From assembly GCA_034660555.1 (NCBI GenBank), contig JAYEJL010000059.1, positions 1 to 56,551 of the forward strand: a DNA stretch of 56,551 nt, written 5' to 3'. Shown in pieces: positions 3,125-28,024 of the stretch. Position numbers and translations under genes: made by a program. Below the pieces are notes generated by a model, which saw only the letters and a list, made by a program, of their open reading frames with translations, was not told the DNA's origin and ran no database searches. Origin of the DNA: Thermotogota bacterium. GTDB lineage: Bacteria > Thermotogota > Thermotogae > Petrotogales > Kosmotogaceae. The first letter of the stretch is position 1. The number at the start of each line of letters is the position of its first letter.

Positions 3125-3157
3125 AGTCGCTAAAATATTGAATGGAGGTGCTTTTTG

Positions 3158-4909
3158 GTGCCCATAACAATTACTGTTAATGGTAAAAAGCATGAAGTTA
3201 CAGAAGGTCAAACTATTCTTGAGGCTTTAAGAGAAATAGGAATGGATGTTCCAACGTTGTGTTATCATCCTTCACTTTCAATTGTTGGTTCATGCAGGGT
3301 TTGTGTTGTAGAAGTTGAAGGTGCCAAAAATCTTAGCCCGGCGTGTTCAACATATGTAGATGATGGCATGGTTATTAAGACTAACAGTGACAGAGTAGAG
3401 AAAGCTGTTAGATTTAATCTTGCATTGTTACTTTCAAGTCATCCCAACGACTGTATGACCTGTGATGTCAATGGAAAGTGTGAATTTCAGGATCTTATAT
3501 ATCAATATGATGTTCAGGATATGTTCCCAAAAGAATTAAAAAATGAACCCTATGACGAAAGCAGCCCTTCATTATTTAGAGACATGAATAAATGTATTAA
3601 TTGTGGACGATGTGTTCGTGCATGTGAAGAACTTCAAGGACTTTCAATACTTTCTATGACAAACAGAGGGCATGATTCGTTACCCCTACCTTCTTTTGGT
3701 GCACCGATTTCTGCAACAGACTGTATTAATTGTGGGCAATGTGCTTATCTTTGTCCTGTCGGAGCAATAACTGAGAGAATGGAATTTAGACAGGTTATGG
3801 ATGAAATAAACAAGCATAACAAAGTTCTTGTTGTACAGACAGCACCAGCAGTCAGGGTTGCTCTAGGTGAGGAATTTGGAGAAAAGCCTGGTTCAATTAG
3901 TACCGGTAAAATGGTTGCAGCGTTAAGGAAACTTGGTTTTGATTATGTATTTGACACCAATTTTGCGGCAGATTTGACAATTATGGAAGAAGGATCTGAA
4001 TTGCTTGACAGAGTTAAAAATGGTGGTAAGTTTCCTATGTTTACATCATGTTGTCCAGCATGGGTAAATCTTATGGAAAAAAGATATCCAGATTTTACGG
4101 AAAATCTTTCTTCTGCAAAATCCCCTCATGAAATGTTAGGAGCAGCAGTTAAAACATATTTTGCAGAAAAAATTGATGTTGATCCTGAGGATATTTATAT
4201 TGTATCAGTTATGCCCTGTACAGCAAAAAAAGATGAAAAATTAAGAGAGCAGTTGAAGGTAAACGGTTTTGATGCTGTCGATACTGTAATAACAACACGT
4301 GAACTTGGAAAAATGATTGAGGTCAAGAAGATACCCTATGAATCACTTGAAGAAGAAGAATACGACAAGCCTCTGGGCATTTCAACAGGAGCGGGTGCGA
4401 TTTTTGGTGCTACTGGCGGTGTAATGGAGGCTGCATTAAGGACAGCTTATGAACTTTACACAGGAGAAGAATTACCAAAACTTGATTTTGATGAAGTCAG
4501 AGGAATTGAAGGAATAAAAGAGGCGACTATTGAGATGAAAGACGCAAAATTAAGGGTTGCAGTTGCTCATGGAGCTGCAAATGTAATCAGATTGATGGAA
4601 AAAATAAAAAGTGGAGAAGCAGAATACGATTTCGTAGAAATAATGGCCTGTCCTGGCGGTTGTATTGGGGGGGGTGGACAACCTTCTTCTAACGATCCTG
4701 ATATTATTCAAAAGAGAATTAATGCTATTTATGATATAGATCGAAATCTTGAGCTTAGAAAATCTCACGAAAATCCAGCAATCAAACAAATATACGAAGA
4801 CTTTTTTGGTGAGCCACTTTCACACCTTTCACATGAATTATTACATACAACTTATTCAGGAAGAAAAGATAGCGTAGTTTCAAGAATGAAAGCGGTAAGC
4901 AAAGAGTAA
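3158..4909 (+). CDS. hydA: Group A [FeFe]-hydrogenase catalytic subunit (HndD/HydA-like)
   Basis: H-cluster motifs TSCCPAW, MPCTAKKDE, EIMACPGGCIGGGGQP; N-terminal [2Fe-2S], His-ligated [4Fe-4S] (HPNDCMTC...C) and 2x[4Fe-4S]. GTG at 3158 is best spaced from SD GGAGGTG (the track uses TTG 3155). Confidence 0.96.
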   Translation: MPITITVNGKKHEVTEGQTILEALREIGMDVPTLCYHPSLSIVGSCRVCVVEVEGAKNLSPACSTYVDDGMVIKTNSDRVEKAVRFNLALLLSSHPNDCMTCDVNGKCEFQDLIYQYDVQDMFPKELKNEPYDESSPSLFRDMNKCINCGRCVRACEELQGLSILSMTNRGHDSLPLPSFGAPISATDCINCGQCAYLCPVGAITERMEFRQVMDEINKHNKVLVVQTAPAVRVALGEEFGEKPGSISTGKMVAALRKLGFDYVFDTNFAADLTIMEEGSELLDRVKNGGKFPMFTSCCPAWVNLMEKRYPDFTENLSSAKSPHEMLGAAVKTYFAEKIDVDPEDIYIVSVMPCTAKKDEKLREQLKVNGFDAVDTVITTRELGKMIEVKKIPYESLEEEEYDKPLGISTGAGAIFGATGGVMEAALRTAYELYTGEELPKLDFDEVRGIEGIKEATIEMKDAKLRVAVAHGAANVIRLMEKIKSGEAEYDFVEIMACPGGCIGGGGQPSSNDPDIIQKRINAIYDIDRNLELRKSHENPAIKQIYEDFFGEPLSHLSHELLHTTYSGRKDSVVSRMKAVSKE

Positions 4910-10200: not shown

Positions 10201-11826
10201 CTTTATTTTGACGTTTATCTTTCAGATAGAGCAGAACCTGTATTCAGCGGATTGGAGACTCCTGTTGCGACTTTAACTGAAAAGATTGATCTTGAAACTA
10301 ACAAGCGATATACATGGTATGTAGTTGCCAGAGATAATTATGGTAATGAGGCAACTTCACCAAAATGGGAATTTACCACAATTAACAATCCGCCAACTGT
10401 TGAATTAATTGAGCCCAGTAACAATGCAACAGAAGTAGATGACCCAGGTATTATCATTAAATGGGAAGGTTATGATGCTGATAACGATACACTCTATTAT
10501 GATCTGTTCATTGGTACTAATGAAGAAGATATGGAACAAAAAACGTCTTCGATCACAGATACAGAATACAGATTTGAGGATTATAAAGGAGCAACCACCT
10601 ATTACTGGTATGTAAAAGTAACAGACGAAAAAGATAGTGCTACTAGTAAGATATGGTCATTTACAACAGGTAATAAACCACCAGAATCACCAGAATTGTT
10701 CTATCCAGAAGCTGGAAGAGAAAAGGTGAATATTAAGCCCACAGTAAAGTGGAGCTGTGAAGATCCAGAAGACGATCCATTGACATTCTCTATATATCTT
10801 GGAGAAAGTTCTGATAACTTGTCATATATTGCCACTACACCGAAGGATACATATGAATATGAATTTGAAGGAATCCTTGGTGGAAACAAGACATACTTTT
10901 GGAAAGTATCAGCAGAAGATCCACAAGGAAGATTAATTGAAAGCAAAACAGCTTCATTTACCACAGTTGTAGTTACAGATAGAGTACCTTATGTTATCGA
11001 CAACGAACTCAAACTTGCTGTTTTTGTTGAAGATGAAAGTGAACCAATAACCGTTAACACCTCATACAACAATCTAAATAATGATGTTGCACCAATTATT
11101 GCAGGTGATTTTGTATATGGATTGACAGAAAATGGAGAGTTGAACACCTACCATATCAAATTAACAGGCATCGAAGTAGAAGAAACTGCAAAATACAAAA
11201 CCAATAGTTCTCCAATAACAATGTTGAAGAATGATGATGAACTATACATTCTTGATTCATATAACCTTTGTGAAATTTACAAGGTTGACCTAAACAATGG
11301 TTTACCGGCAGAAATTGACAGAGTTTATCGTTCCTGGATTGTCCCGGTTGATATGACTATCACAAGAGATCTTAAAACCATAGCCATTGCGGAGGTTCTT
11401 TCAGGTATTAAAGTGCTTACGAGACAGGATGATGGTACATATGAAGAAGTAGTATTTGATGAAGAAATCTTTGATGCAGGAATTGTTAGAACAGTGTCAT
11501 TAAGAAATCGCATGTTGTATTATGGACAATCTGGATCTGGTGGTGGACTATATGCGTTTAATCTGGATAGTCTTGACAAAAAGGCAATTGATGATTACTA
11601 CCTGAGTTCTGAGACAGCAGTAAAAGGTAATGTACTTTATGCACTAACGGATTCAGGACTTTCTGCTATTGACATCAGTGTTCCTTCAGAACCGGCTGTT
11701 GTTAAAGAAGTAGATATTTCAGGTAAGGTAATTCAGGTTGTCGTTGGAGAAAACTACATTATTTTTGTGAAAGAATCAGAAGTACAATACATAGACATAA
11801 GTAATCCATTAAGTCCAAAGGACTAA
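7243..11826 (+). CDS. Large acidic membrane-anchored protein with ~12 fibronectin type III-like repeats and a C-terminal LVIVD/beta-propeller-like region
   Basis: Single N-terminal TM helix; recurring P..P...P / W...D.DGD / Y.W.V.A.D / S..W.FTT units; C-terminal GLSAIDISVPSEP and QYIDISNPLSP. Confidence 0.85.
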   Translation: MHKSSRKTGMNYVLLLMIAAIIVVGIVLTILLWPKPEPEIIISANSPRPNNASQIAYSKNVELYWEVEYDRPNDDLYADIWAGTDEDSLEVVETELLGESSSEAESIFKFSYDLQVEPHDTYYWKVKVYNDAEKADESDVWSFTLKNSQPEKPTLINPQNNETDISMVGFELEWNDAVDPDGDPVTYDVFLGKSRNLGSSDIITENIDNTNLIVTNEILDRVLDPDTTYYWKVRAKDSENLVSESNTQSFITEPYKKLDITLISPEDNATDVVIPVKYEWKLTSGEYYWSVIYEVFVGEEDGTLDRAGSVRVNYPEEDKETVEFIDDTLKGHTNYIWYVKATNVDSGDTSESEKAVFATKNTAPELNISKIAEEDYSIFISWQATDTDGDELLYDIYMKKANEEETSLATNTTETSYTLPEPDSSTEYTFRVVARDNFGSSVSKVASLVTGNTAPVITLKSPDNGNQDSVTRNLRFEWDAYDREGDEIEYTFVLIPPEGEEIAKQLTEKYYEIESLKSLTTYQWYIEAKDAKGAESKSDVWSFTTGNTPPDEPIAVSPEEDATDVTPYRSPVFKWFASDHDNDELSFVLELAEDSEFSSVVATSTDYNFEDPTYVSTLTNVVLDTNREYYWKITANDDQAETAAFWKFKTFDIPPEVPELIEPKNGTEQLKTVNTQFSWEAFDEDDPTLNTWIYLLKEGEDEPDVYELGLRNAGGSEEIATIDDPLDPETEYEWWIVVEDLSGKTAESEKRTFVTGNAAPIITFPSEKLLTMKRYGASTPLEFEWEITDPEGEDVSVEVYFSDQRPPVDVEPVVTDTNLESYTYAGEFEPNKWYYFWIVAEDETGEKAEMDTHLNIIAATDEITYNQPKSEEYYSDKVFDWTVQEPVEEGSYIFRVYDKYGELIEESELEEESSYTIDKRLDGNRHYYWRVIIQEDEEQRFGKAVKFYMTDVKTRLFNPIPADQSENIESDNVVLSWSYEDPDSEELYFDVYLSDRAEPVFSGLETPVATLTEKIDLETNKRYTWYVVARDNYGNEATSPKWEFTTINNPPTVELIEPSNNATEVDDPGIIIKWEGYDADNDTLYYDLFIGTNEEDMEQKTSSITDTEYRFEDYKGATTYYWYVKVTDEKDSATSKIWSFTTGNKPPESPELFYPEAGREKVNIKPTVKWSCEDPEDDPLTFSIYLGESSDNLSYIATTPKDTYEYEFEGILGGNKTYFWKVSAEDPQGRLIESKTASFTTVVVTDRVPYVIDNELKLAVFVEDESEPITVNTSYNNLNNDVAPIIAGDFVYGLTENGELNTYHIKLTGIEVEETAKYKTNSSPITMLKNDDELYILDSYNLCEIYKVDLNNGLPAEIDRVYRSWIVPVDMTITRDLKTIAIAEVLSGIKVLTRQDDGTYEEVVFDEEIFDAGIVRTVSLRNRMLYYGQSGSGGGLYAFNLDSLDKKAIDDYYLSSETAVKGNVLYALTDSGLSAIDISVPSEPAVVKEVDISGKVIQVVVGENYIIFVKESEVQYIDISNPLSPKD

Positions 11827-11842
11827 GAAATTGTTTTATTTG

Positions 11843-11872
11843 AAAAGGCGGGTTAATACCCGCCTTTTTTTT
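11843..11872. terminator. Bidirectional intrinsic terminator
   Basis: AAAAGGCGGGT-TAAT-ACCCGCCTTTT plus T-run between convergent genes. Confidence 0.9.
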
Positions 11873-12410
11873 ACCATTTGTAATTCCATAGATCCCTTCG
11901 GCTGGTTGAAATCGCATTGACATGGTCTTTTAATTCGCTGATTTCTTCTGCTTTATCTACAAGCCCAGCAGCAACTATCTTTATATCCGGAATGAAATAA
12001 CGCAGTTTTGGAGCAACCTTTTTGGAGATTATTCCAGGAAGTACTTCAACTATATCAATTTTGTTACTCTCAATTTGTTCTACACCCCTATCCACTGCTC
12101 TTGAATCAAGAGCGAAAAAACGAAGAATAGATGTTAATCCCACTGAATTAGCAATGTTCCGGACCTTAAGCTTTGCTGTAATAATTCCATTTACACCAAT
12201 ATCTTTCAAAAAATGAATACCAGCTCTATCTGATCTTAAGCCTGATATGAAATCGATATCAACAAGTACCTTTTTATTGTGGTTATGGAAATTTTTGAGT
12301 CTTTCTGGAAGTTCGGTTATGCTACCGTTTAAAAAAAATACTGTTTCTGTGTCAACTTCTTCAGGTTTTACGCTACTTTCCCACAATGCTGCGATTATTC
12401 CCTTTAGCAT
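11871..12410 (-). CDS. glpP: Glycerol-3-phosphate-responsive antiterminator GlpP
   Basis: VLVDIDFISGL, GIIT, RFFALDS, EVLPG, AAGLV, AISTS...LW; divergent from the G3P dehydrogenase operon. ATG 12410 fits SD AGGAG better than GTG 12419. Confidence 0.92.
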   Translation of the reverse strand: MLKGIIAALWESSVKPEEVDTETVFFLNGSITELPERLKNFHNHNKKVLVDIDFISGLRSDRAGIHFLKDIGVNGIITAKLKVRNIANSVGLTSILRFFALDSRAVDRGVEQIESNKIDIVEVLPGIISKKVAPKLRYFIPDIKIVAAGLVDKAEEISELKDHVNAISTSRRDLWNYKW

Positions 12411-12448
12411 TTTTATCACTCCTTGCTATGATTATGAAATTATTGTTA

Positions 12449-12520
12449 TGGTATAATAATAACAGAGTTCGTGGTAGAGATGATGAGAAAACCACGCCCT
12501 TAAAGGGCGTGGTTTTTTTA
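12449..12520 (+). promoter_or_regulatory. Extended -10 promoter plus leader with mutually exclusive antiterminator/terminator hairpins (GlpP-type attenuator)
   Basis: TGgTATAAT at 12449-12457. Terminator AAAACCACGCCCT-TAA-AGGGCGTGGTTTT plus T-run (12488-12519). Upstream CGTGGT (12470-12475) can pair instead with ACCACG (12491-12496). Confidence 0.85.
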
Positions 12521-12533
12521 TAGGAGGTACATT

Positions 12534-13979
12534 ATGAAAGTAGCGGTTATTGGTGGAGGAATTGTTGGTTCTCTGTTAGCTTATGAACTATCCAAATACG
12601 ATTTAGAACTCATTCTTATAGAAAAAAATAATGATTTTGGACAGGAGGTAACAAAGGCTAACTCAGCAATTATTCATGGAGGATATGATGATCCACCGGG
12701 GTCATTGAGAGCAGAATTATGCTCTGATGGCAACAGAAAGTACGATATATTGTCAAAAGAATTGTCTCTACCCGTAAAAAGAATAGGATCACTAGTTGTC
12801 TCTGATGATACATCCGATAGTGAAAAAAGGCTTGAAGAACTATACAGAAGAGGAATTAAAAATGGTGTTGAAGGTTTATCAATTTTAAGTAGTGATAAAC
12901 TACAGTCAATTGAACCTAATCTAGATGAAAAATATTCAAAAGCATTATACTGTAAAAGCGCTGCTATAACAGAACCCTGGATGGTTGCGGTTTTGGCCGC
13001 TAAAGGGGCTGAAAAAAATGGAGCAAGGTTAATTACCGGAGATGAAGTAGTTGATTCAATCTCAAAGGGCAGAAATATCAAAAAAGTTGTACTTTCTTCC
13101 GGGGAAGAAATTGAAGTTAATCTTGTCTTAAACGCAGCAGGAGTATATTTTAACAAAGTTGCAAGAATTTTTGGTGTACGGACTCCTGAGATTATACTTG
13201 TTAAAGGACAGTATTTACTTCTTGATCATCTTGCTTCCGAATTGGTTAGCACCATTATTTTTCCTCTGCCCAGTAAAAAAGGTAAAGGAAAACTCATTGT
13301 TCCAACAATTGATGGAGGAATTCTGCTTGGGCCAACTTCTGAAGCAATAGACGGGTTCAATCCTGAAGAGTTAAGTACAACTTCGAAAGGGATAAAAGAA
13401 GTTGCAGATGCCGGTGAAGAGTTCATTCATGGAATAGCAAGACCAAAATGGTTTATAAAAACTTTCGCGGGGTTAAGACCCGAAACTCCAAACAAAGATT
13501 TTTACATAAAGTTATCTTCTGAAAAAACTAATTTTATAACCGTTGGTGGAATGAGATCACCTGGTTTAACTGCGGCGCCTGCAGTAGCGGATTATGTAAT
13601 AGAGTACCTTATTCAAGAAAAAATGGGAATAACCCTTGTTAAAAATGACAGAGTAAGGTCTATATCTCCCGGTTTGAGGATAAAGGAGCTTTCTTTTGAA
13701 GATGCTTCAAAAAAAATAGAAGAAAACAGTTCATATGGAAGAATAATATGTCAATGTAATCAGGTATCAGAAAAGGAGATTCGTGATGCTATTAGAGATG
13801 GGGCAAGAACCCTTGATGATGTGAAATTTAGGACTAGAGCAACATTTGGAAGATGTCAGGGAGGTTTTTGTACCTGGAAAATAATGAAAATTATATCAGA
13901 AGAACTTAACATTCCACTTGAAGAGGTAAAGAAAAATGATAAGGGAAGCGAGTTACTGGACGGGAAGGTGAGAAAATGA
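12534..13979 (+). CDS. FAD-dependent glycerol-3-phosphate dehydrogenase-like subunit with C-terminal BFD-like [2Fe-2S] domain
   Basis: GGGIVG, TKANSAIIHGG, FAGLRP, SPGLTAAPA, CQCN...GRCQGGFC; glpP context. Confidence 0.85.
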   Translation: MKVAVIGGGIVGSLLAYELSKYDLELILIEKNNDFGQEVTKANSAIIHGGYDDPPGSLRAELCSDGNRKYDILSKELSLPVKRIGSLVVSDDTSDSEKRLEELYRRGIKNGVEGLSILSSDKLQSIEPNLDEKYSKALYCKSAAITEPWMVAVLAAKGAEKNGARLITGDEVVDSISKGRNIKKVVLSSGEEIEVNLVLNAAGVYFNKVARIFGVRTPEIILVKGQYLLLDHLASELVSTIIFPLPSKKGKGKLIVPTIDGGILLGPTSEAIDGFNPEELSTTSKGIKEVADAGEEFIHGIARPKWFIKTFAGLRPETPNKDFYIKLSSEKTNFITVGGMRSPGLTAAPAVADYVIEYLIQEKMGITLVKNDRVRSISPGLRIKELSFEDASKKIEENSSYGRIICQCNQVSEKEIRDAIRDGARTLDDVKFRTRATFGRCQGGFCTWKIMKIISEELNIPLEEVKKNDKGSELLDGKVRK

Positions 13980-15217
13980 AAAGCCATGAAACCGATATCC
14001 TCGTAATTGGTGGTGGGGCTGCAGGTATGGCAGCATCATTGAGTGCTTCAAAACAAAATAAGCACGTGACATTATTGGAAAGAGAAAATGATACTGGAGG
14101 AGTTTTGAATCAGTGTGTTCATAATGGTTTTGGAGTGCAATTTTATCAAGAAGAACTCACTGGTCCCGAGTTTTCAACACGTCTTCATGGAGAAATGAGT
14201 GAGCAAAATGTAGAAGTTATTTGTGAATCATATGTGAGGAATCTTGATGTACACGAGAAGATTGCAGAGATATTCTCACCTCAAGGTGCTTATACTATAA
14301 AAGCCAAATCAGTAGTTTTAGCAACTGGCGCCAGAGAAAGACCTTTCGGTGCTCTGTTGATACCAGGAGAAAGACCTTCAGGAATTTTTCCAGCCGGATT
14401 AGCACAACGTTTTGTGAATCTTGAGAATCATTTACCGGGGAAGAAAGCTATTATTTTAGGCTCAGGAGATATCGGATTAATAATGGCAAGAAGGCTTCAT
14501 CTGGAAGGAATGAAGGTTATTGGGGTTGTAGAACGTCTTCCTTATGCAGGTGGGTTAACAAGAAATGTTGTTCAATGTCTGGATGATTTTGAAATTCCCC
14601 TTTATTTGTCTCATACAATAATCGAAGTGAGAGGCTCTCCGCGTCTAGAAGCTGTGAAAATGGTTAAGGTTGATGATTCACTTAACCCGATTGATGGAAC
14701 TGAAAAATGGATTGAAGTGGACACACTCATTTTATCTGCAGGGCTTATACCCCATGTGGAAGATTTTGCTGATGAAGGAGCACTGGATCATGTGAATAAG
14801 GGATTTATCGTGTCAAATACTGGTGAAACAGTTTACTCCGGTATATTTGCAGCAGGAAATAATGTTGCGATTTATGATCTTGTTGATTATGTAGCAGCTG
14901 AGGGTTGGATAGCAGGGAAAAATGCTGCTCTATATGCTGAAGGCAATTTGGACAAGACCAGGCATCTAGAGATAAGAAGAGGGAAAAACGTGAATGTTCT
15001 TGTTCCCAATAAGGTTACAACAGAAGAACACTTGAGAATTTATTTGAGATTAAAAGAACCAATAGATGAGGGAAAGATAATTATTAATGAACTGGGCATA
15101 GAGAAGGAATTTAAGTATGGTGTTCCCAGCGAAATGCTTCAGTTGACAGTTAACAAGAAGAAATTGAGTGAATTATTACATGATAAAGATAATGTAACAG
15201 TGGAAGTGATTTCATGA
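13976..15217 (+). CDS. FAD/NAD(P)-dependent oxidoreductase, partner of the G3P dehydrogenase
   Basis: GGGAAG, GGVLNQCVHNGFG, ATGARER, GSGDIGLIMARR; 4-nt overlap with the upstream gene. Confidence 0.88.
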   Translation: MKSHETDILVIGGGAAGMAASLSASKQNKHVTLLERENDTGGVLNQCVHNGFGVQFYQEELTGPEFSTRLHGEMSEQNVEVICESYVRNLDVHEKIAEIFSPQGAYTIKAKSVVLATGARERPFGALLIPGERPSGIFPAGLAQRFVNLENHLPGKKAIILGSGDIGLIMARRLHLEGMKVIGVVERLPYAGGLTRNVVQCLDDFEIPLYLSHTIIEVRGSPRLEAVKMVKVDDSLNPIDGTEKWIEVDTLILSAGLIPHVEDFADEGALDHVNKGFIVSNTGETVYSGIFAAGNNVAIYDLVDYVAAEGWIAGKNAALYAEGNLDKTRHLEIRRGKNVNVLVPNKVTTEEHLRIYLRLKEPIDEGKIIINELGIEKEFKYGVPSEMLQLTVNKKKLSELLHDKDNVTVEVIS

Positions 15218-15582
15218 AGGGTCATATAACATGTACAGTTTGTCCCGTTGGATGTAAGATTTTTATAAGTGATGAAAGTGGAGAAATTGTTATTGAAGGA
15301 AATCGTTGTGAAAGAGGATATGAATATGCAATGAATGAAGTTGTGCGTCCTAAAAGGACATTGCCAACTAGCGTTAAAGTCATTGGTGGCAGCCTGCCCC
15401 TTGTTTCAGTGAAAAGCTCGAAACCCATAGACAGAAAAAGAATTATTGATATCATGAAGAAAATTAAGAGTATCACAGTTAAAGCTCCTGTCAGAATAGG
15501 TGATGTAGTCGCAGAAGATATTGATGGTGAAGGAACATCACTTATAGCTACTAGAAACGTTAAAGAGGTGCATGAAAAATAA
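15214..15582 (+). CDS. DUF1667-type small Cys-rich protein, third component of the G3P dehydrogenase cluster
   Basis: CTVCPVGC...GNRCERG; ATGA overlap with the upstream gene. Confidence 0.85.
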   Translation: MKGHITCTVCPVGCKIFISDESGEIVIEGNRCERGYEYAMNEVVRPKRTLPTSVKVIGGSLPLVSVKSSKPIDRKRIIDIMKKIKSITVKAPVRIGDVVAEDIDGEGTSLIATRNVKEVHEK

Positions 15583-21626: not shown

Positions 21627-22409
21627 TTATTCAGAATATAAAACCATATCTGCGTAAGCCAGGTAAACCATATTTAGAAAAACACTGTTCCTTATTGACC
21701 ATAGTTCATCTACTTTAATATTGCAGCCTGATTCTTCAAGCCAATGATTCATCGACCATAGAGTGAATTCGTAAATTTGAGCAATACCTCTTGAATAAAC
21801 TTCATTTGATATATCAGGGTTAATGCTTGTTTCTCTAGCATATGCGAGAGGATTAAATCCAGATTCAACAGCTAAAATTGCAAGAACAAGTTCAGGTTTT
21901 ATATTGGAAAGCTTAAGATTATAACGATTAACGCCAACATTGATTGTTACAACAGCACCCGAAAACTCCATAATTGCTTCATAAATTGTTTGAGATATTT
22001 TCTCTTTTGTTTCCTGATTATACATATCCAGTGAGTTAGATGTTTCAATAAGTTTATCCATTCGTTCTTTTAGCTTTGGTCTACTCAAAGTGAAGAAATG
22101 TGAAGCAAATCTTTCAACATCCTCATCACTATCGAAAATAACATCAACAGATTTATCCACAACTTTGACACCACCAGGCAGTTGTGAAGGAGTTCCCGAA
22201 CCGCTAACAAAATAGCTGTAGTATTCGTAAACTTTATCATCGTAATTGTAATCAGGATTATTTAAAAAGCTTTTGTGATCTGCTCCTATCCCTCTGTTAT
22301 AGATTATTGCCATGGTTCTGATTTGTTTTTTTTCAACCGCCATGGAATTGAACACAAACAAAGTAATCAACCCAGCAGTAGATGCAACAAATATAAGAAA
22401 AATCATCAA
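21627..22409 (-). CDS. Membrane-anchored lytic transglycosylase (SLT domain) protein; true start may be 18-21 nt upstream
   Basis: LVLAILAVESGFNPLA (catalytic Glu), SRGIAQI; N-terminal hydrophobic helix. Confidence 0.8.
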   Translation of the reverse strand: MMIFLIFVASTAGLITLFVFNSMAVEKKQIRTMAIIYNRGIGADHKSFLNNPDYNYDDKVYEYYSYFVSGSGTPSQLPGGVKVVDKSVDVIFDSDEDVERFASHFFTLSRPKLKERMDKLIETSNSLDMYNQETKEKISQTIYEAIMEFSGAVVTINVGVNRYNLKLSNIKPELVLAILAVESGFNPLAYARETSINPDISNEVYSRGIAQIYEFTLWSMNHWLEESGCNIKVDELWSIRNSVFLNMVYLAYADMVLYSE

Positions 22410-22481
22410 ATCAAATTTATCGTTGATAATCTCTCACCTCTTATTTAGTATATAACAAAAAACAATATATTATGAAGCATT

Positions 22482-22506
22482 AAAAATCGGGGATTTTATC
22501 CCCGAT
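22482..22506 (-). terminator. Intrinsic terminator of the diaphorase operon
   Basis: ATCGGGGAT-loop-ATCCCCGAT, followed by a T-run on the minus strand. Confidence 0.8.
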
Positions 22507-22522
22507 CAAATTTTTCAAATTA

Positions 22523-24163
22523 TTAAAAAAGCAACCTCGCTTTTCGAGGTTCCTTTTTACCTTTTTCGAAAACACATACTCCTGCTGGGCATCTTTCAGC
22601 ACCAACATGTTGTAAGAATTCTTCTTTGAATCTATCTAGAATGGATCTTAATGGAATGGGCACAGATTGTCCAAGTCCGCAGAAAGAAGTTTTTTCCATA
22701 TTATCTGCAATATCATATAGGTTATCTATCATTTCTCGTGTACCACGGCCTTTTGAAAGTTCTCTCAGGTAGTGAACTATCAATTTGGTACCTTCTCTAC
22801 AGGGTGTACACTTTCCACAGGATTCATGTTCAAAGAATTCCATAAGGTTTAATGCAATATCAACTGCGCAATTGGTATCGTCAATAACAAGAATAACTCC
22901 CGAACCAAGTGAAATACCGTAATTTTTGGGTGAATCAAAATCCAATGGTGTAGATAGTTCTTCAGGTGTGATAAATGTACCAGCTGCGCCACCAGTTTGA
23001 ACCATTTTCAATTTTCTTCCTTCACTTATTCCACCACCATATTTGTACAGTAGATCAGCTACTGTTACTCCCATGGGAACTTCTGTTATCCCTTTATTTA
23101 CAACGTTTCCGCACAGACAAAAGACCTTTGTCCCTGCCGATGATTCGGTACCAATTGATTTGAACCATTCTGAACCGTTATTAACGATGTCAGGAATGTT
23201 GGCAAAGGTTTCTACATTATTTACGACTGTGGGTTTTTCATACAGACCTTTTACTGGAGGATATGGTGGTTTAAGTCTAGGTCTTCCGGATTTACCTTCG
23301 ATTGATTCAATGAGTGCTGTTTCTTCACCACACACATAAGCACCAGCACCAAGTCTAACTGACAGATCAAAATTAAAGTCGGTGCCCATAATATTTTTTC
23401 CCAACAATCCATATTCGTAGGCCTGATCTATTGCAATTTTAAGGTTATTTACAGACTCAAAATATTCTCCCCTTATATAAATGTAACCTTTATTAGCTCC
23501 AACAACATATCCTGCAATTGCCATGCCTTCGATTACCGAATGGGGATCGCCTTCCATGATAAGCCGGTCTTTGAATGTACCGGGTTCTCCTTCATCTGCG
23601 TTGCAAACAACAAACTTATCTTTAGCTTTGACATTTTTTGTAAATTCCCATTTCAGTCCGGTTGGGAAACCAGCACCGCCACGACCTCTCAAGTTACTTT
23701 CTTTAACGGTTCTTAAAAGTTCATCTCTATCAGTTTTGAGAGCTTTAGAAAGACTTTGGTAACCATCCATGGCAATAAATTCTTCAATATTTCGAGGATC
23801 AATAGACCCAATTCTTTTTAATACAATTCGGTTTTCTTCCGTTCTTTCTGTTGCTTCTACAGCACCAGGAATATCAATATCTTCTATAATGAGATCGTCA
23901 ATTGGTCTTCCCTTTAAGAGTTGTTCTTCTACAAATTTGTCTACATCTTCCTTCTGCTGAAGCCCGTATATTCTGTTATCAGGTAGAAGCAAAAATAGCG
24001 GTTTATCGCCATATTTACCAAAACTTCCTGTCTCAAGTACCTCAACCATATCTCCTAAATTGTATTTGTTAATAAGTGAAAGGAGATAGTTTTTGAGATG
24101 TCTGGCACCAAGTAGTATACTATTTGAATCTACTGATACGAGTATAGTAAGTGGTTTTCTCAT
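22523..24163 (-). CDS. NuoF/HydB-like FMN/NAD(P)H-binding subunit, copy 2 (Cys-less N-terminal Trx-like domain, no C-terminal 2x[4Fe-4S])
   Basis: RGRGGAGFPTG, NADEGEPGTFKDR, GAGAYVCGEETAL, ESCGKCTPCREG, SFCGLG. Confidence 0.93.
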   Translation of the reverse strand: MRKPLTILVSVDSNSILLGARHLKNYLLSLINKYNLGDMVEVLETGSFGKYGDKPLFLLLPDNRIYGLQQKEDVDKFVEEQLLKGRPIDDLIIEDIDIPGAVEATERTEENRIVLKRIGSIDPRNIEEFIAMDGYQSLSKALKTDRDELLRTVKESNLRGRGGAGFPTGLKWEFTKNVKAKDKFVVCNADEGEPGTFKDRLIMEGDPHSVIEGMAIAGYVVGANKGYIYIRGEYFESVNNLKIAIDQAYEYGLLGKNIMGTDFNFDLSVRLGAGAYVCGEETALIESIEGKSGRPRLKPPYPPVKGLYEKPTVVNNVETFANIPDIVNNGSEWFKSIGTESSAGTKVFCLCGNVVNKGITEVPMGVTVADLLYKYGGGISEGRKLKMVQTGGAAGTFITPEELSTPLDFDSPKNYGISLGSGVILVIDDTNCAVDIALNLMEFFEHESCGKCTPCREGTKLIVHYLRELSKGRGTREMIDNLYDIADNMEKTSFCGLGQSVPIPLRSILDRFKEEFLQHVGAERCPAGVCVFEKGKKEPRKARLLF

Positions 24164-24663
24164 TTGGAAGCCCCTCTTTCTTCTTCAGTTATTTTGTCAA
24201 TAATCTTGTCTACTTTTTCCGGGGTGAGATTTCCATAAGCTTCGTCATTTATTAACATCACTGGAGAAACTCCGCATAAACCAAGGCAACTGCTCTGTTC
24301 TAATGTAAATAATCCATCTTCAGTAGTTTCACCAAAATCTATTTTCAGTCTCTTCTTTAGTTGGTTAATTACCTTTTCACCATTTGCTACATGACAGGGA
24401 AGGCTTTTACAAACCCTGATAATATATTTTCCTCGTTCTTTTGTTGACAACATTGTGTAGAATGTTAGAACCTCATTTATCCTTGATGTAGGTTTATCCA
24501 TCAATTCTGAAAGTATCTCTGCTGCTTCAAGTGGAATATAACCATCGAATTCTTTTTGTAGGGAGTGCAACGTATTCAAAAGAATATCATCATCATTTAA
24601 GCTATCTTTTTTACATTCGTTATAAGAATCAAGGACTTTTTCTTTTATTTTTTCAGTAGACAT
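24160..24663 (-). CDS. NuoE/HydC-like [2Fe-2S] subunit, copy 2
   Basis: TFYTM, CKSLPC...CLGLC. Confidence 0.93.
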   Translation of the reverse strand: MSTEKIKEKVLDSYNECKKDSLNDDDILLNTLHSLQKEFDGYIPLEAAEILSELMDKPTSRINEVLTFYTMLSTKERGKYIIRVCKSLPCHVANGEKVINQLKKRLKIDFGETTEDGLFTLEQSSCLGLCGVSPVMLINDEAYGNLTPEKVDKIIDKITEEERGASK

Positions 24664-24700
24664 CTAAACCCTCCTTTCAGCCCTTCGGAAAAGTGAGTAA

Positions 24701-26500
24701 CTAGGGTGAAACTTTGCTTATGGCATCGAATCGACATACTTCGAGACAACTGCCACAGCGAGTACATATTTCCGGATCGATCTCGTGCACTTCACGGGGG
24801 CTTCCCGAAATTGCATCAACAGGACAAACCCTTGCACATGCAGTACAACCAACACATTTGTTCTCATCTATAACAACCCTATAAAGTGATTTACAACGTT
24901 TAGCAGGGCATCGTTTTTCATTAACATGAGCGAGATATTCATCCCAGAAATATCTCATAGTAGACACGACCGGTTGAGGTGCTGTTTGACCCAAGCCACA
25001 TAGTGAATTCTCCATTATGTGTTTCCCCAGCACTTTTAGTATTTCTAGATCTTCTTCTGTTCCTTCACCATTTGTTATTTGTTCTAGTATTTCAAGCATC
25101 TTTGGTGTTCCTTCTCTACAAGGTGTGCATTTTCCGCAGGATTCTTCAACAGTGAAGTCAATGAAGAATTTGGCGACATCTACCATACAATCATCTTCAT
25201 CAATAACAATAATTCCGCCAGAACCAATAATTGTACCCAGTTCCTTCATATTATCATAAGTAATTGGAGTGTCGAGAAGGTGTTCGGGAATACAACCTCC
25301 ACTTGGACCACCAGTTTGAACAGCCTTAAGCTTTTTACCGTTGGGAACGCCTCCACCAATTTCATAAATCAACTTTTTAAGTGTTATTCCCATAGGTACC
25401 TCTACGAGTCCGGTATTTTTTACTTTTCCTGCAAGAGCAAATACTTTTGTACCCCTTGAGCCTTCAACGCCAAACTGTGAAAACCATTCACCACCATTTC
25501 TTATAATCATGGGTATATTGGCATAAGTTTCAACATTGTTATTTAGGGTTGGTTTATCCCATAATCCTTTTTCCGCAGGGAAAGGGGGTTTTACTTCTGG
25601 AATTCCGCGTTTACCTTCAACTGAGTTTATCAGAGCTGTTTCTTCACCACATACAAAAGCGCCAGCCCCGATTCTTATTTCAATATCAAAGCTGAAGTTC
25701 GTATCTAAAATGTTGTCACCCAGGAATCCCATCTTTCTGGATTCTTCAAGAGCTTTGGAAAAACGTTCAATTGCAAGCGGATATTCTGCTCGAATATATA
25801 TATAACCCTTTGTTGCTCCTATTGCATACCCTGCAATAGTCATGGCTTCAACGATATTAAAAGGATCGCCCTCCAAAATTGCCCTATCCATAAAAGCTCC
25901 AGGGTCGCCTTCATCGGCGTTGCAAATAATATATTTTGGATTTCCTTTATTATTTCTTGCGAGTTCCCATTTTAAGCCGGTTGGAAAACCTGCTCCACCT
26001 CTTCCTCTGATTTCACTTTTTTTGAGTTCATCTATAATATCTTGAGGAGTCATTTCTTTTATAGCTTTGTGTAATGAAAAGAAACCATCCTGGGCAATAA
26101 ATTCCTCTATTGAAAGTGGATCAACAACTCCAAGATTTCTTGTGGCAATTTTTACCTGTTCGGTAAAAAATGGCATTTCTTCCTGTGGTTTTTCCTTTAT
26201 TTCACCGGTATCACCTTTGAAAAGGTATTCTTTTACTATACGACCCTTCAACAAATGTTCTTCTACTATTTTTCTTGCTGCCTTTGCATCGAGTTTTTGG
26301 TAGAAAACTCCCTCTGGATAAATTACAGCTATGGGGCCCAGATCACAGGCACCCATACAGCCAGTTTCTACAACCTGAACTACTTCATTAAGAGCATACT
26401 TCTCAAGTGCGTCTTCTATTTCGTTTTTTACTGATTTTTCTCCGGCGGAAATACATGCTCCACCAGCGCAAATGAGAATTGTGTTTTCGACTGTGGGCAC
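24701..26500 (-). CDS. NuoF/HydB/HndC-like flavin subunit, copy 1 (full bifurcating-type architecture)
   Basis: N-terminal CAGGAC...GCMGAC, RGRGGAGFPTG, NADEGDPGAFMDR, GGPSGG, ESCGKCTPCREG, C-terminal CVGCTACARVCP and CTRCGSCLEVC. Confidence 0.95.
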   Translation of the reverse strand: MPTVENTILICAGGACISAGEKSVKNEIEDALEKYALNEVVQVVETGCMGACDLGPIAVIYPEGVFYQKLDAKAARKIVEEHLLKGRIVKEYLFKGDTGEIKEKPQEEMPFFTEQVKIATRNLGVVDPLSIEEFIAQDGFFSLHKAIKEMTPQDIIDELKKSEIRGRGGAGFPTGLKWELARNNKGNPKYIICNADEGDPGAFMDRAILEGDPFNIVEAMTIAGYAIGATKGYIYIRAEYPLAIERFSKALEESRKMGFLGDNILDTNFSFDIEIRIGAGAFVCGEETALINSVEGKRGIPEVKPPFPAEKGLWDKPTLNNNVETYANIPMIIRNGGEWFSQFGVEGSRGTKVFALAGKVKNTGLVEVPMGITLKKLIYEIGGGVPNGKKLKAVQTGGPSGGCIPEHLLDTPITYDNMKELGTIIGSGGIIVIDEDDCMVDVAKFFIDFTVEESCGKCTPCREGTPKMLEILEQITNGEGTEEDLEILKVLGKHIMENSLCGLGQTAPQPVVSTMRYFWDEYLAHVNEKRCPAKRCKSLYRVVIDENKCVGCTACARVCPVDAISGSPREVHEIDPEICTRCGSCLEVCRFDAISKVSP

Positions 26501-26515
26501 TACAAATCACCTCTT

Positions 26516-26893
26516 TTAAAGTTCTCCACGTTTAACAACGAGATCGGATACAACATTTCCTCCAAGTATATGCTTATCAATTATCCTTTTAACTTGTGAG
26601 GGAGTTACATGGCCGTAAATAATAGGTTCTTCTCCTTCAAGATTTACCTCTATGGTAGGTTCCACATCGCATAAACCAAAACAGCCTGACTGTACAACTG
26701 AAATATCTTCAACATTCTTTTCATCCAGGTAATTGACGATTGCACTTAATGTGTCTTTTGCTCCGGCAGCGATACCACAGGTTCCCATAGCAACAATAAT
26801 CTTCCCCTTTTTGCCGGAATCTCTCATCTTCAAACCTTTAAGTGCTTTCTCTTTGATTTTCATTAAATCGTCAAGACTTTTTATTTTCGCCAT
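26516..26893 (-). CDS. HndB-like thioredoxin-fold [2Fe-2S] ferredoxin subunit
   Basis: AMGTCGIAAGA, SGCFGLCDVEP. Confidence 0.9.
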   Translation of the reverse strand: MAKIKSLDDLMKIKEKALKGLKMRDSGKKGKIIVAMGTCGIAAGAKDTLSAIVNYLDEKNVEDISVVQSGCFGLCDVEPTIEVNLEGEEPIIYGHVTPSQVKRIIDKHILGGNVVSDLVVKRGEL

Positions 26894-27386
26894 CGTTTTC
26901 CCCCCTGTACTTATTTATTATTTTTTTTATTGCGTCTGGTGTCAAACGACCGAAGAAGTCGTCTTCACCAACCATTACTACCGGGGCCATACTGCATGCT
27001 CCAACGCATCTAACGGCATGTACTGAGAATAGTCCATCTTCTGTTGGTTCGTCGAGCTCAACTCCTAGCTCTTCCTTGAAACGTTCCAGTATTTTGTCGC
27101 CACCTTTTACATAACATGCTGTTCCAACACAAACCTTAATCTGGTATTTGCCTTTAGGTTTGGTTGAGAAGAAGTTATAAAAGGTAGTGACACCATATAC
27201 CTGGCTTGGTGGAACATTTAGTTTATTAGCAATATGTTCCTGAAGTTCAACAGGCAGATAACCAAAGAGTTTCTGGGCGTAGTGTAATACGTTGATTAAT
27301 ACTCCTGGTGTGCTCTGCATCGATTCAATGAACTCATCAAGCTTATCATATAGTTTTTGGTTATGTTCTCGAACTGCTTCGGACAA
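26871..27386 (-). CDS. NuoE/HndA-like [2Fe-2S] subunit, copy 1
   Basis: VYGVTTFYNFF, CVGTACYVKG...CVGAC. TTG 27386 follows SD GGAGGTG (the track start 27461 is too long). Confidence 0.93.
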   Translation of the reverse strand: MSEAVREHNQKLYDKLDEFIESMQSTPGVLINVLHYAQKLFGYLPVELQEHIANKLNVPPSQVYGVTTFYNFFSTKPKGKYQIKVCVGTACYVKGGDKILERFKEELGVELDEPTEDGLFSVHAVRCVGACSMAPVVMVGEDDFFGRLTPDAIKKIINKYRGENDGENKKS

Positions 27387-27405
27387 TACGTGCACCTCCC
27401 AGGGA

Positions 27406-27435
27406 ATGTTATTTATTTCACTAAGCATTATAGCA
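27406..27435 (-). promoter_or_regulatory. Extended -10 promoter (TGcTATAAT) followed by a Rex-like operator TAGTGAAATAAATAACAT
   Basis: TATAAT at 27432-27427; the 18-mer at 27423-27406 matches the Rex consensus 10/14 and overlaps the predicted +1. Confidence 0.55.
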
Positions 27436-27511
27436 TTAAATTTGAGAAATGGCAGTCGCATTGTGTTAAAATAACCGATGTTACAGCATCTGTTTTCAAG
27501 GAGGAAATGAT

Positions 27512-28024
27512 ATGAATTTAAGGGACTATGTTAGAGACATACCGGATTTCCCAGAAACTGGTGTAATTTTCAAAGATGTCACTCCAATGTTAAAAAATCC
27601 TGAAAGTTTTAAAGAATGCTTAAGGATTTTGAATGAAAAAGTGGATGACCTTGACTTCGATGTTGTGTTGGCTCCGGAAGCGAGAGGTTTCATTTTTGCA
27701 GCACCCATTGCACTCCATTTTGGTAAGGGGTTCGTTCCAGTTCGCAAGCCAGGAAAGCTTCCTTATGAAAAACATTCTGTTGAATATACCTTGGAATATG
27801 GAAAAGCAAAATTGGAGATGCATACCGATGCTGTGCTAAAAGGTGAGAAAGTTCTAATTGTTGATGATGTACTTGCTACTGGAGGAACTATGGAAGCCAT
27901 ATGTAAAATGGTTGAAAAAGCCGGTGGAAAAGTTTCTGCGATCTTATCATTGATTGAACTAACCTTCCTTGAACCAAAAAAGAAACTCAAGGACTATGAA
28001 GTAAGGACAATTATTGAATACTAG
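27512..28024 (+). CDS. apt: Adenine phosphoribosyltransferase
   Basis: IPDFP..GV.FKD, EARGF, RKPGKLP, Y.LEYG, VDDVLATGGT. Confidence 0.97.
   Translation: MNLRDYVRDIPDFPETGVIFKDVTPMLKNPESFKECLRILNEKVDDLDFDVVLAPEARGFIFAAPIALHFGKGFVPVRKPGKLPYEKHSVEYTLEYGKAKLEMHTDAVLKGEKVLIVDDVLATGGTMEAICKMVEKAGGKVSAILSLIELTFLEPKKKLKDYEVRTIIEY

Follow-up and report, generated by a model that had tools for sequence, protein, structure and literature searches.

Why should a bacterium place two different NuoEF-type diaphorase modules in one operon in which no catalytic subunit is encoded, and which enzyme do they serve? This question is raised by a 56,551-nucleotide stretch (the window) of a Thermotogota bacterium of the Kosmotogaceae (GenBank assembly GCA_034660555.1, contig JAYEJL010000059.1), in which five consecutive minus-strand open reading frames (ORFs) spanning 22523-27386 are found in the order E1, HndB-like, F1, E2, F2. 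An original prediction, made from the letters of the sequence, had read this order as nuoE1-hndB-nuoF1-nuoE2-nuoF2, followed by a terminator and including no hydrogenase, formate dehydrogenase or GltD gene; the ORF list, Pfam and two hairpins support the order and the terminator, and none of the three enzymes is found among the five genes and their domains. In the present study, we consider it probable that both modules, E1-HndB-F1 (head 1) and E2-F2 (head 2), are NADH-input modules serving the same [FeFe] hydrogenase, HydA, encoded at 3155-4909. This reading is carried by the sequence types of both heads, their conservation, their linkage and the position of HydA as the sole candidate docking partner in the genome. 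The genes concerned are as follows.

3155..4909, plus strand: HydA, [FeFe] hydrogenase of the M3 type (PF02906 1.3e-100, PF02256 3.3e-26)
26871..27386, minus strand: E1, NuoE/HndA/HydC-like [2Fe-2S] subunit, 171 aa from TTG 27386 (PF01257 2.6e-50)
26516..26893, minus strand: HndB-like small thioredoxin-like [2Fe-2S] protein, 125 aa (PF01257 24.4 bits)
24701..26500, minus strand: F1, bifurcating-type flavoprotein (HydB/HndC/BfuB), 599 aa (Pfam, structure matches, motifs)
24160..24663, minus strand: E2, second NuoE-like [2Fe-2S] subunit, 167 aa (PF01257 1.8e-46)
22523..24163, minus strand: F2, non-bifurcating-type flavoprotein, 546 aa (Pfam, alignment, motifs)

Results

The two flavoproteins are of opposite class. 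In Pfam, F1 combines an N-terminal 2Fe-2S_thioredx part with Complex1_51K, SLBB, NADH_4Fe-4S and two Fer4 domains, whereas F2 contains only Complex1_51K, SLBB and NADH_4Fe-4S. The motifs differ in the same manner: F1 carries DEGDPGAFMDR (A-x-M), GAGAFVCGEE with a Phe, and GGPSGG, and F2 carries DEGEPGTFKDR (T-x-K), GAGAYVCGEE with Tyr276, and QTGGAAGTF, that is, GGAAGT and no GGPSG. The first and last motif of each protein had been named in the original prediction and are present in the translations; the N-terminal [2Fe-2S] and C-terminal 2x[4Fe-4S] that it had assigned to F1, and the lack of a ferredoxin tail in F2, agree with Pfam and the alignment. It had further contrasted A-x-M with T-x-K as marks of two classes, and this contrast is among the criteria given in the available text of Losey et al. 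2020 (PMC7311640). There, bifurcating enzymes have Ala/Glu and Met at the positions of Thermotoga maritima HydB 232/234, Phe at position 367 and a GGPSG motif, whereas non-bifurcating enzymes have Thr/Ser and Lys/Ser/Ala, Tyr and no GGPSG, and each criterion tested puts F1 with the former and F2 with the latter. Non-bifurcating forms without the extra cluster sites are likewise described in the sections available of Schut et al. 2022 (PMC9304861) and Zheng and Huang 2024 (PMC11406978). F2 shows all the marks of a non-bifurcating, NADH-dependent beta subunit in the sense of Losey et al., namely T-x-K, Tyr, no GGPSG and no extra cluster domains, and F1, examined as a control, shows A-x-M, Phe and GGPSG instead. 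The Phe is found in 23 of 23 rows of the F1 family and the Tyr in 19 of 19 rows of the F2 family.

F1 has the features of BfuB of the Bfu family: the FMN/NADH domain, the B1 [4Fe-4S] site, the B2 ligands including the His, B3/B4 and B5, where B3/B4 are the C-terminal 2x[4Fe-4S] and B5 is the N-terminal [2Fe-2S] of BfuB according to the criteria seen in Schut et al. 2022. All the motif cysteines and the H-x5-C-x4-C pattern are present in F1 and in 14/14 aligned orthologues. F2 does not have this complete B1-B5 set: no B3/B4 domain is present, and the N-terminal thioredoxin-like domain is retained with all four of its cluster cysteines, those of B5, replaced (LVSVDSNS, ETGSFGKY). F2 aligns with Acetobacterium woodii HydB from residue 25 up to the B2-site motif CPAGVC and ends 15 residues past this motif, at the point where the ferredoxin domain would follow. 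The B1 and B2/Zn-site ligands (Cys...His-x5-Cys-x4-Cys) are retained in F2, and since the B2-site His/Cys ligands are said to be absent from non-bifurcating homologues (Schut et al. 2022, in the part available), F2 is not a textbook case of either class. Within the phylum these ligands are kept in 13 of 15 F2 orthologues and lost in genomes that have F2 only.

Comparison with solved structures points away from complex I for both proteins. The best matches are A. mobile HydB (3e-238) and A. woodii HydB (3e-237) for F1, and A. woodii HydB (2e-164) and A. mobile NiFe-HydB (3e-163) for F2, and NuoF chains match far worse (about 1e-117) than HydB chains (1e-164 to 1e-238). Nor is there a separate NuoG as for a respiratory complex I NuoEF, the genome's one PF10588 match being inside HydA, although membrane-arm genes were not searched for. 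Trees of the flavoprotein core (FastTree, 180 rows; IQ-TREE quick search, LG+G4, 75 rows), which had been proposed as a check on the two NuoF copies, place the F2 orthologues in one clade (support 100) apart from F1; this clade adjoins T-x-K proteins of other phyla (SH-aLRT 90), and F1 joins the HydA-linked HydB/HndC proteins (92). The outgroup failed to make up one side of a branch, and the root was not relied on. In databases, these genes are annotated as NuoF, NADP oxidoreductase or HndC, and this annotation masks the difference between F1 and F2.

Among the small subunits, E1 and E2 are clear matches to 2Fe-2S_thioredx (PF01257) in the Pfam search, and the HndB-like protein, with 24.4 bits, falls just below the 24.8 cut-off. 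The best NCBIfam matches, both under their cut-offs, are HoxE for E1 and 2Fe-2S ferredoxin (4.7e-11) for the HndB-like protein. In E2 the cysteines C85, C90, C126 and C130 are invariant in 18 homologues, and the cofactor residues of E2 and F2 together are invariant over 18-19 homologues from five phyla. The E2 orthologue of one genome (G138) is split into two frames of 76 and 83 aa at a conserved KPxGKY stretch (L012, 1988-2466); E2 is a single open frame of 162-194 aa in five sister genomes, and the split is a strain-specific frameshift or a sequencing error.

HydA is the only catalytic partner offered by the genome (188 contigs, 95.5% complete). It is the sole [FeFe] hydrogenase, with one PF02906 match, and it contains the genome's sole match to PF10588 (NuoG iron-sulfur), which we take to mark the NuoG-like domain on which such flavoproteins dock. 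All four PF01257 matches of the genome lie within the operon, and the three PF01512 (Complex1_51K) matches are F1, F2 and a 448-aa frame on contig C77 that we take, unchecked, to be RnfC. The gene to which the original prediction had linked the operon, at 3158, is of the catalytic [FeFe] type and is placed here at 3155-4909, GTG 3158 being an equally plausible start. T297, C299, P301, W303, M353, P354, C355, K358, E495, M497, C499 and C503 are invariant in 19 homologues; with TSCCPxW, MPCxxK and ExMxCxxGCxxG presumed as the H-cluster motifs, HydA has both the H-cluster cysteines and the small-subunit-like C-terminus of a catalytic hydrogenase. It matches Thermoanaerobacter kivui HydA1 at 8e-190 (635 bits), A. 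woodii HydA1 at 3e-172 (577) and CpI at 4e-154 (517), and by these scores it appears closer to the HydA of bifurcating enzymes than to monomeric CpI. A GltD/NfnB-like (Fer4_20) gene occurs once in the genome, on another contig, and no such domain is present in the five proteins, which sets the cluster apart from an Nfn-Bfu/StnABC transhydrogenase with its GltD-like BfuA. HydA is favoured as the partner, and the proposed link to this gene upheld, because it is the only [FeFe] hydrogenase and holds the only PF10588 match, and because homologues in other phyla stand in the same row as both heads.

The pairing of the heads is conserved in the phylum Thermotogota, where 151 genomes of 11 families (f1-f11) were searched with F2, F1 and HydA. 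Among the matches listed, F2 orthologues (at least 54% identity) were found in 107 genomes and F1 orthologues (at least 61%) also in 107; F1-like rows of family f2 (56-62%), a third paralogue (49-51%) and a second partial F2 piece of G043 were left out. The closest database proteins are from Kosmotoga, Mesotoga and Kosmotogaceae (70-74%), followed by Thermotoga, Fervidobacterium, Thermosipho and Pseudothermotoga, and these names assign the window to Kosmotogaceae. It had been stated beforehand that a rare linkage of nuoE2F2 to nuoE1-hndB-nuoF1 in relatives would speak against a single system. Instead, of the 98 genomes where both are listed, 83 have F2 behind F1, on one strand and no more than 1.5 kb away, and the similar gene sets that the original prediction had mentioned for Thermotogota genomes do exist. 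The pairing is kept in 8/11 families, and the order E1-B-F1-E2-F2, including the position of the HndB-like gene (10/10), was seen in all 10 tandem loci inspected, which come from eight families, one locus being cut by the contig end before E1. In 12 other genomes of family f1, 9-23 kb separate hydA from the cluster. The sister family f2 lacks F2, and in it hydA is directly behind the F1-like gene in at least 11 genomes (e.g. L016, a full E-B-F-HydA operon). In some f7 genomes hydA is divergent beside E1-B-F1 (L013), and several others of this family, two of them 96% complete (G026 and G028), have F2 and HydA and no F1; therefore, E2F2 works without head 1. The trimeric HydCBA operon of other families (L018, L019), which this genome lacks, constitutes a third set of paralogues distinct from both.

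The pairing is common in anaerobes and recurs in other phyla. A search of representative proteins with F2 gave best matches 42-52% identical, with no F2-orthologue representative among the matches listed, and genome contigs were then searched with P0003, the nearest distant relative of F2. A single co-directional row E1-HATPase-B-F1-E2-F2-HydA was found in a Caldisericota metagenome-assembled genome (MAG; L022) and in a Cloacimonadota MAG (L040), and a row E1-F1::GltD-E2-F2-HydA in a Verrucomicrobiota MAG (L021). In an Anaerolineaceae MAG (L023, 3248-10743), E2-F2-E1-HATPase-B-F1 is followed, in place of hydA, by a molybdopterin FdhA-like gene whose product has a NuoG-like N-terminus. The Cloacimonadota F2, used as the query of a metagenome scan, gave 80 loci, 23 of them with an F2-type gene. 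An F1-type gene is on the same strand in 17/23, and a full or cut hydA is adjacent in 14/23 (13 directly after F2, one between F1 and E2). No F1-type gene was recognised in 6/23, comprising four contigs of at most 3.3 kb, one unclassified fragment and L141, in which B-E-F2 is followed by a cut hydA-like gene. In 56 of the 57 remaining loci, the matched gene is of the F1 type in an ordinary E-B-F1(-HydA) row.

Several further arrangements were seen in these loci. The exception among the 57, L136, has three consecutive flavoprotein genes, each accompanied by a NuoE-like gene of its own; the first is of the normal bifurcating type, the second is a 612-aa hybrid with T-x-K, a Cys-free N-terminus and a 2x[4Fe-4S] tail, and the third is of the A-x-M type. 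In L021 (3432-6473), fusion of the F1-type subunit with a GltD-like NADPH/FAD module gives a protein of 1013 aa, and this enzyme would have three nucleotide-binding flavin sites. A histidine-kinase-like HATPase_c gene (178-192 aa) sits between or before E1 and HndB in L022 (4008-4544), L040 (3734-4303), L023 (6032-6610) and L013 (6334-6897) and is absent from the operon of the window. Cloacimonadota-like loci have a sensory-type hydrogenase-like gene encoding 425-440 aa upstream.

In the window, the intergenic spacings in operon order are -23, +15, +37 and -4 nt, E2 and F2 overlapping by 4 nt, and the operon is flanked by an SLT-domain gene and a divergent phosphoribosyltransferase gene, both unrelated. 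The longest E1 frame is 26871-27461 on the minus strand. The start at TTG 27386, as originally proposed, is likelier because a GGAGGTG ribosome-binding site precedes it and a promoter-like site lies inside the longer frame. The following signals were noted.

27427..27455, minus strand: promoter-like site CTGCCA-17-TATAAT with TG before the -10 hexamer (consensus match 10/12)
27406..27423, minus strand: weak, tentative Rex-like box TAGTGAAATAAATAACAT, between the -10 hexamer (4 nt away) and the E1 start (19 nt away)
22486..22551, minus strand: two terminator-like hairpins after F2 (22551-22533 and 22506-22486), the first overlapping the last F2 codons
3107..3124, plus strand: Rex-like box TTGATAGAAAATTCACAA, 30 nt before hydA (consensus scan, conservation)

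Promoter-like sites were identified by consensus match only, with 22 found in 6 kb against 16.0 expected from shuffles. Four other genomes of the family have the box TTGATAGAAAATTCACAA, or a nearly identical one, 30-50 nt upstream of hydA, and a Rex homologue is encoded in the genome. A better box than TAGTGAAATAAATAACAT is found at the same distance before the operon in one other family (L006: 2 mismatches, 18 nt). Across the whole window, the Rex consensus matches 9 times against 8.44 expected, which is not significant by itself; only the box before hydA carries weight, by its position and conservation. This box is also similar to TTGAGAAATTTATCACAA, the operator of T. maritima TM0201 with which Rex was crystallised (PMC8836258, in the part available). 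Redox control by Rex, shared by hydA and the operon, is plausible from these boxes.

The operon of a close relative is spanned by RNA-library contigs, from oil-field samples and a close relative, that are 90-99% similar to the stretch. For 22400-27600 they cover 30/30 bins in X1, 28 in X2 and 20 in X4, which indicates presence only and not transcription. One contig ends at 27421, approximately the start point of the predicted promoter, although contigs cannot show a transcription start. Elsewhere in the window, 7243-11826 encodes a protein of 1527 aa whose domains are of the fibronectin type III, Big_5 and Rha78A-like Ig kinds; it is presumably a large protein of the cell surface. At 11871-15582, a glycerol-3-phosphate antiterminator gene is divergent from a three-gene set (an FAD oxidoreductase with a BFD-like [2Fe-2S] domain, a pyridine-nucleotide-disulphide oxidoreductase and a DUF1667 protein) resembling an anaerobic glycerol-3-phosphate dehydrogenase set.

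Discussion

The closest known systems of head 1 are the tetrameric, electron-bifurcating [FeFe] hydrogenases of the Bfu family, HndABCD of Solidesulfovibrio (Desulfovibrio) fructosivorans and, in the same group, the enzyme of Caldanaerobacter subterraneus. HndA, HndB and HndC have their counterparts, in the same order and with the same domain content, in E1, the HndB-like protein and F1. In contrast to an HndABCD operon, in which the HndD/HydA gene is behind HndC, E2 follows F1 here: the catalytic gene is outside the operon, and a second E/F pair stands in its place. For head 2, the marks of F2 are as described for the beta subunits of Syntrophomonas wolfei Hyd1ABC and Syntrophus aciditrophicus HydAB (Losey et al. 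2017, 2020) and, in the available part of Zheng and Huang 2024 (PMC11406978), for 'sub-type II BfuABC', E2 being the counterpart of the gamma subunit. The present pair differs in that its operon also encodes a complete bifurcating head, with which it has one hydA in common, and F2, compared with the Syntrophomonas and Syntrophus beta subunits by description only, keeps a Cys-free N-terminal remnant and the B2 ligands. The HydABC enzymes of T. maritima, A. woodii and T. kivui (PDB 7p5h, 7q4v, 8a6t) are the best solved-structure matches of F1, F2 and HydA and have one flavoprotein per HydA, whereas two are encoded here. One flavoprotein per catalytic subunit is also the rule among the characterised HydABC/Bfu members named in the parts seen of the cited literature.

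The cluster itself has been noted before. In the portion seen of a 2018 Mesotoga preprint (10.1101/322537), the Mesotoga prima orthologues Theba_0461-0465 and the sole hydrogenase Theba_0443 are described as highly transcribed, the cluster as 'all Hnd subunits except HndD', and a similar genomic context as seen only in Mesotoga and Kosmotoga; the five-gene order is far wider than these two genera. Candidatus Cloacimonas is listed among genomes with a predicted non-bifurcating enzyme in the available text of Losey et al. 2020 (PMC7311640). A literature search found no description of bifurcating and non-bifurcating heads paired in one operon with one catalytic gene, nothing on a second or two NuoF or NuoEF with an [FeFe] hydrogenase and, as the original prediction had supposed, no biochemical study; a search by TM0010/0011/0012/0201/0228/0229 found nothing on the flavoprotein genes, only the TM0201 Rex operator, and the passages seen of the Schuchmann 2018 review do not treat a second flavoprotein. 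So far as these sources go, the pairing of the two heads with one catalytic gene has not been described previously.

Herein, we propose that the five proteins and HydA make up a two-mode hydrogenase. Head 1, a Hnd/HydABC-type electron-bifurcating core of the Bfu family, would with HydA reversibly couple H2 to NADH and reduced ferredoxin. Head 2, a cluster-poor pair as in non-bifurcating, NADH-only [FeFe] hydrogenases, would with HydA provide a direct link between NADH and H2, running towards H2 only at very low H2 pressure. Each head would dock on the NuoG-like N-terminal domain of HydA, and the mode would be set by H2 pressure and redox state, possibly under the control of Rex. Because each module occurs alone with HydA and the docking site is by homology the same, two alternative assemblies are considered as likely as one complex.

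Several points weigh against the proposal that both heads serve one HydA. First, hydA lies 17.6 kb from the operon on the opposite strand, and given this distance and orientation the link rests on the census of the genome and on other genomes. Second, F1 and F2 are unlinked in 15/98 genomes (all 8 of g44/g45, 5 of f7 and two contig-end cases); F1 is apart from F2 in both g44 and g45, and at the one F1 locus inspected in a g45 genome (G138), the last 4 nt of the F1 orthologue overlap a following rubrerythrin gene (L011, 1706-2134). Third, the F2-type metagenome loci are mostly of one lineage (57-98% identical to the query) and not independent, so that their counts show recurrence of the pairing and not independence. 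Fourth, TAGTGAAATAAATAACAT has 4 mismatches to the Rex consensus, a score equalled by about 27% of random 303-nt windows of the genome. Fifth, that both flavoproteins use NAD(H) we infer from a single residue position: an acidic residue (D or E) in DEG(D/E)PG, present in both F1 and F2, is reported from Escherichia coli NuoF work to select NADH and exclude NADPH. Finally, an NADH-only head on the iron-sulfur chain of a bifurcating head would short-circuit the energy coupling, and this argument in turn leaves the strict co-transcription of both heads unexplained.

The last point bears on whether the heads meet in one particle. A 'two-gear' hydrogenase, in which electrically joined HydA protomers carry bifurcating and NADH-only heads in one particle, is a tentative idea that we consider rather unlikely to be correct. 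With the same subunit set, such an enzyme would switch between H2 turnover coupled to ferredoxin and H2 turnover linked directly to NADH or, alternatively, would change the NADH:ferredoxin:H2 stoichiometry. On this idea, the paired cassette would likewise serve formate dehydrogenases, as in the Anaerolineaceae locus. In its fixed form, put forward in the original prediction, in which the protomers with head 1 and head 2 are paired through the HydA-HydA contact and the second head is a gated additional NAD(H) site altering the stoichiometry or direction of the bifurcating reaction, it is equally doubtful. Mixing in one particle is spoken for by strict co-transcription with a single hydA, in the order conserved within the phylum (83/98) and across phyla, and by the B2/Zn ligands of F2, kept and lost as if tied to head 1. 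The solved HydABC enzymes, moreover, are reportedly (in work by Furlan and colleagues) dimers of protomers joined electrically through HydA. It is argued against because an NADH-only head would uncouple bifurcation, nothing was seen that would enforce mixed pairing, and each head is also found alone with HydA in some lineages.

It is considerably less likely that only head 1 partners HydA, as in a Hnd-type tetramer, with E2F2 being a stand-alone diaphorase, or one with an unrecognised partner, co-transcribed merely for shared redox regulation. E2F2 is indeed unlinked from head 1 in g44/g45 and most of f7, and some F2-only genomes have no hydA beside E2F2 (L015, L020; the neighbours are a MalK-like ABC ATPase and DnaJ). 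However, the genome has no second PF10588 match; F2-type genes stand directly before hydA in other phyla; hydA is 24.6-24.7 kb from E2F2, and not from head 1, in seven g44/g45 genomes; and non-bifurcating HydA-beta(-gamma) enzymes with such a beta subunit have been purified (Losey et al. 2020, PMC7311640, as far as seen).

An equally improbable reading dispenses with HydA, which would be an independent ferredoxin-dependent enzyme: the five proteins would form a BfuA-less (Type 4) Bfu enzyme, a soluble NADH/NAD(P)H/ferredoxin oxidoreductase (transhydrogenase) with E2F2 as the module for a third substrate. The slot behind F1 does vary by lineage, being filled by hydA (L016), rubrerythrin (L011, G138) or, here, E2F2, and a BfuA-less clade with unknown third substrates is described in the sections seen of Schut et al. 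2022 (PMC9304861). The same text predicts Rub-Bfu, BfuB clade 57, as a BfuBC core without adjacent BfuA, and the F1-rubrerythrin overlap of G138 fits the description given for 13 members of this clade, to which F1 presumably belongs; in the window, E2F2 and not rubrerythrin follows F1, and in the part available of the supplementary text Thermotogota are not named. Against this reading, the paired cassette outside the phylum is, in loci with enough flank, always followed by hydA or an fdhA-like gene, and HydA is more like the HydAs of multimeric enzymes than CpI. The NADH/NADPH/ferredoxin transhydrogenase offered as an alternative in the original prediction is disfavoured by this ending of the cassette, by the separate GltD/NfnB-like gene and by the acidic residue in F1 and F2. 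We know of no electron route from the [4Fe-4S] of one NuoF-type protein to another. Finally, F2 as a recent duplicate of F1 is rejected, the trees placing the two in different clades.

Conclusions

If both heads bind HydA, the pair would offer a natural system in which the role of the extra clusters of BfuB can be asked, F2 being a natural deletion variant beside the intact form, at a time when bifurcating HydABC/Bfu hydrogenases are under active mechanistic study. It would then also bear on the disposal of NADH in Kosmotoga and Mesotoga, in which the trimeric HydABC is absent, and the textbook division of fermenting H2 producers into 'bifurcating' and 'NADH-only' would fail for these organisms.

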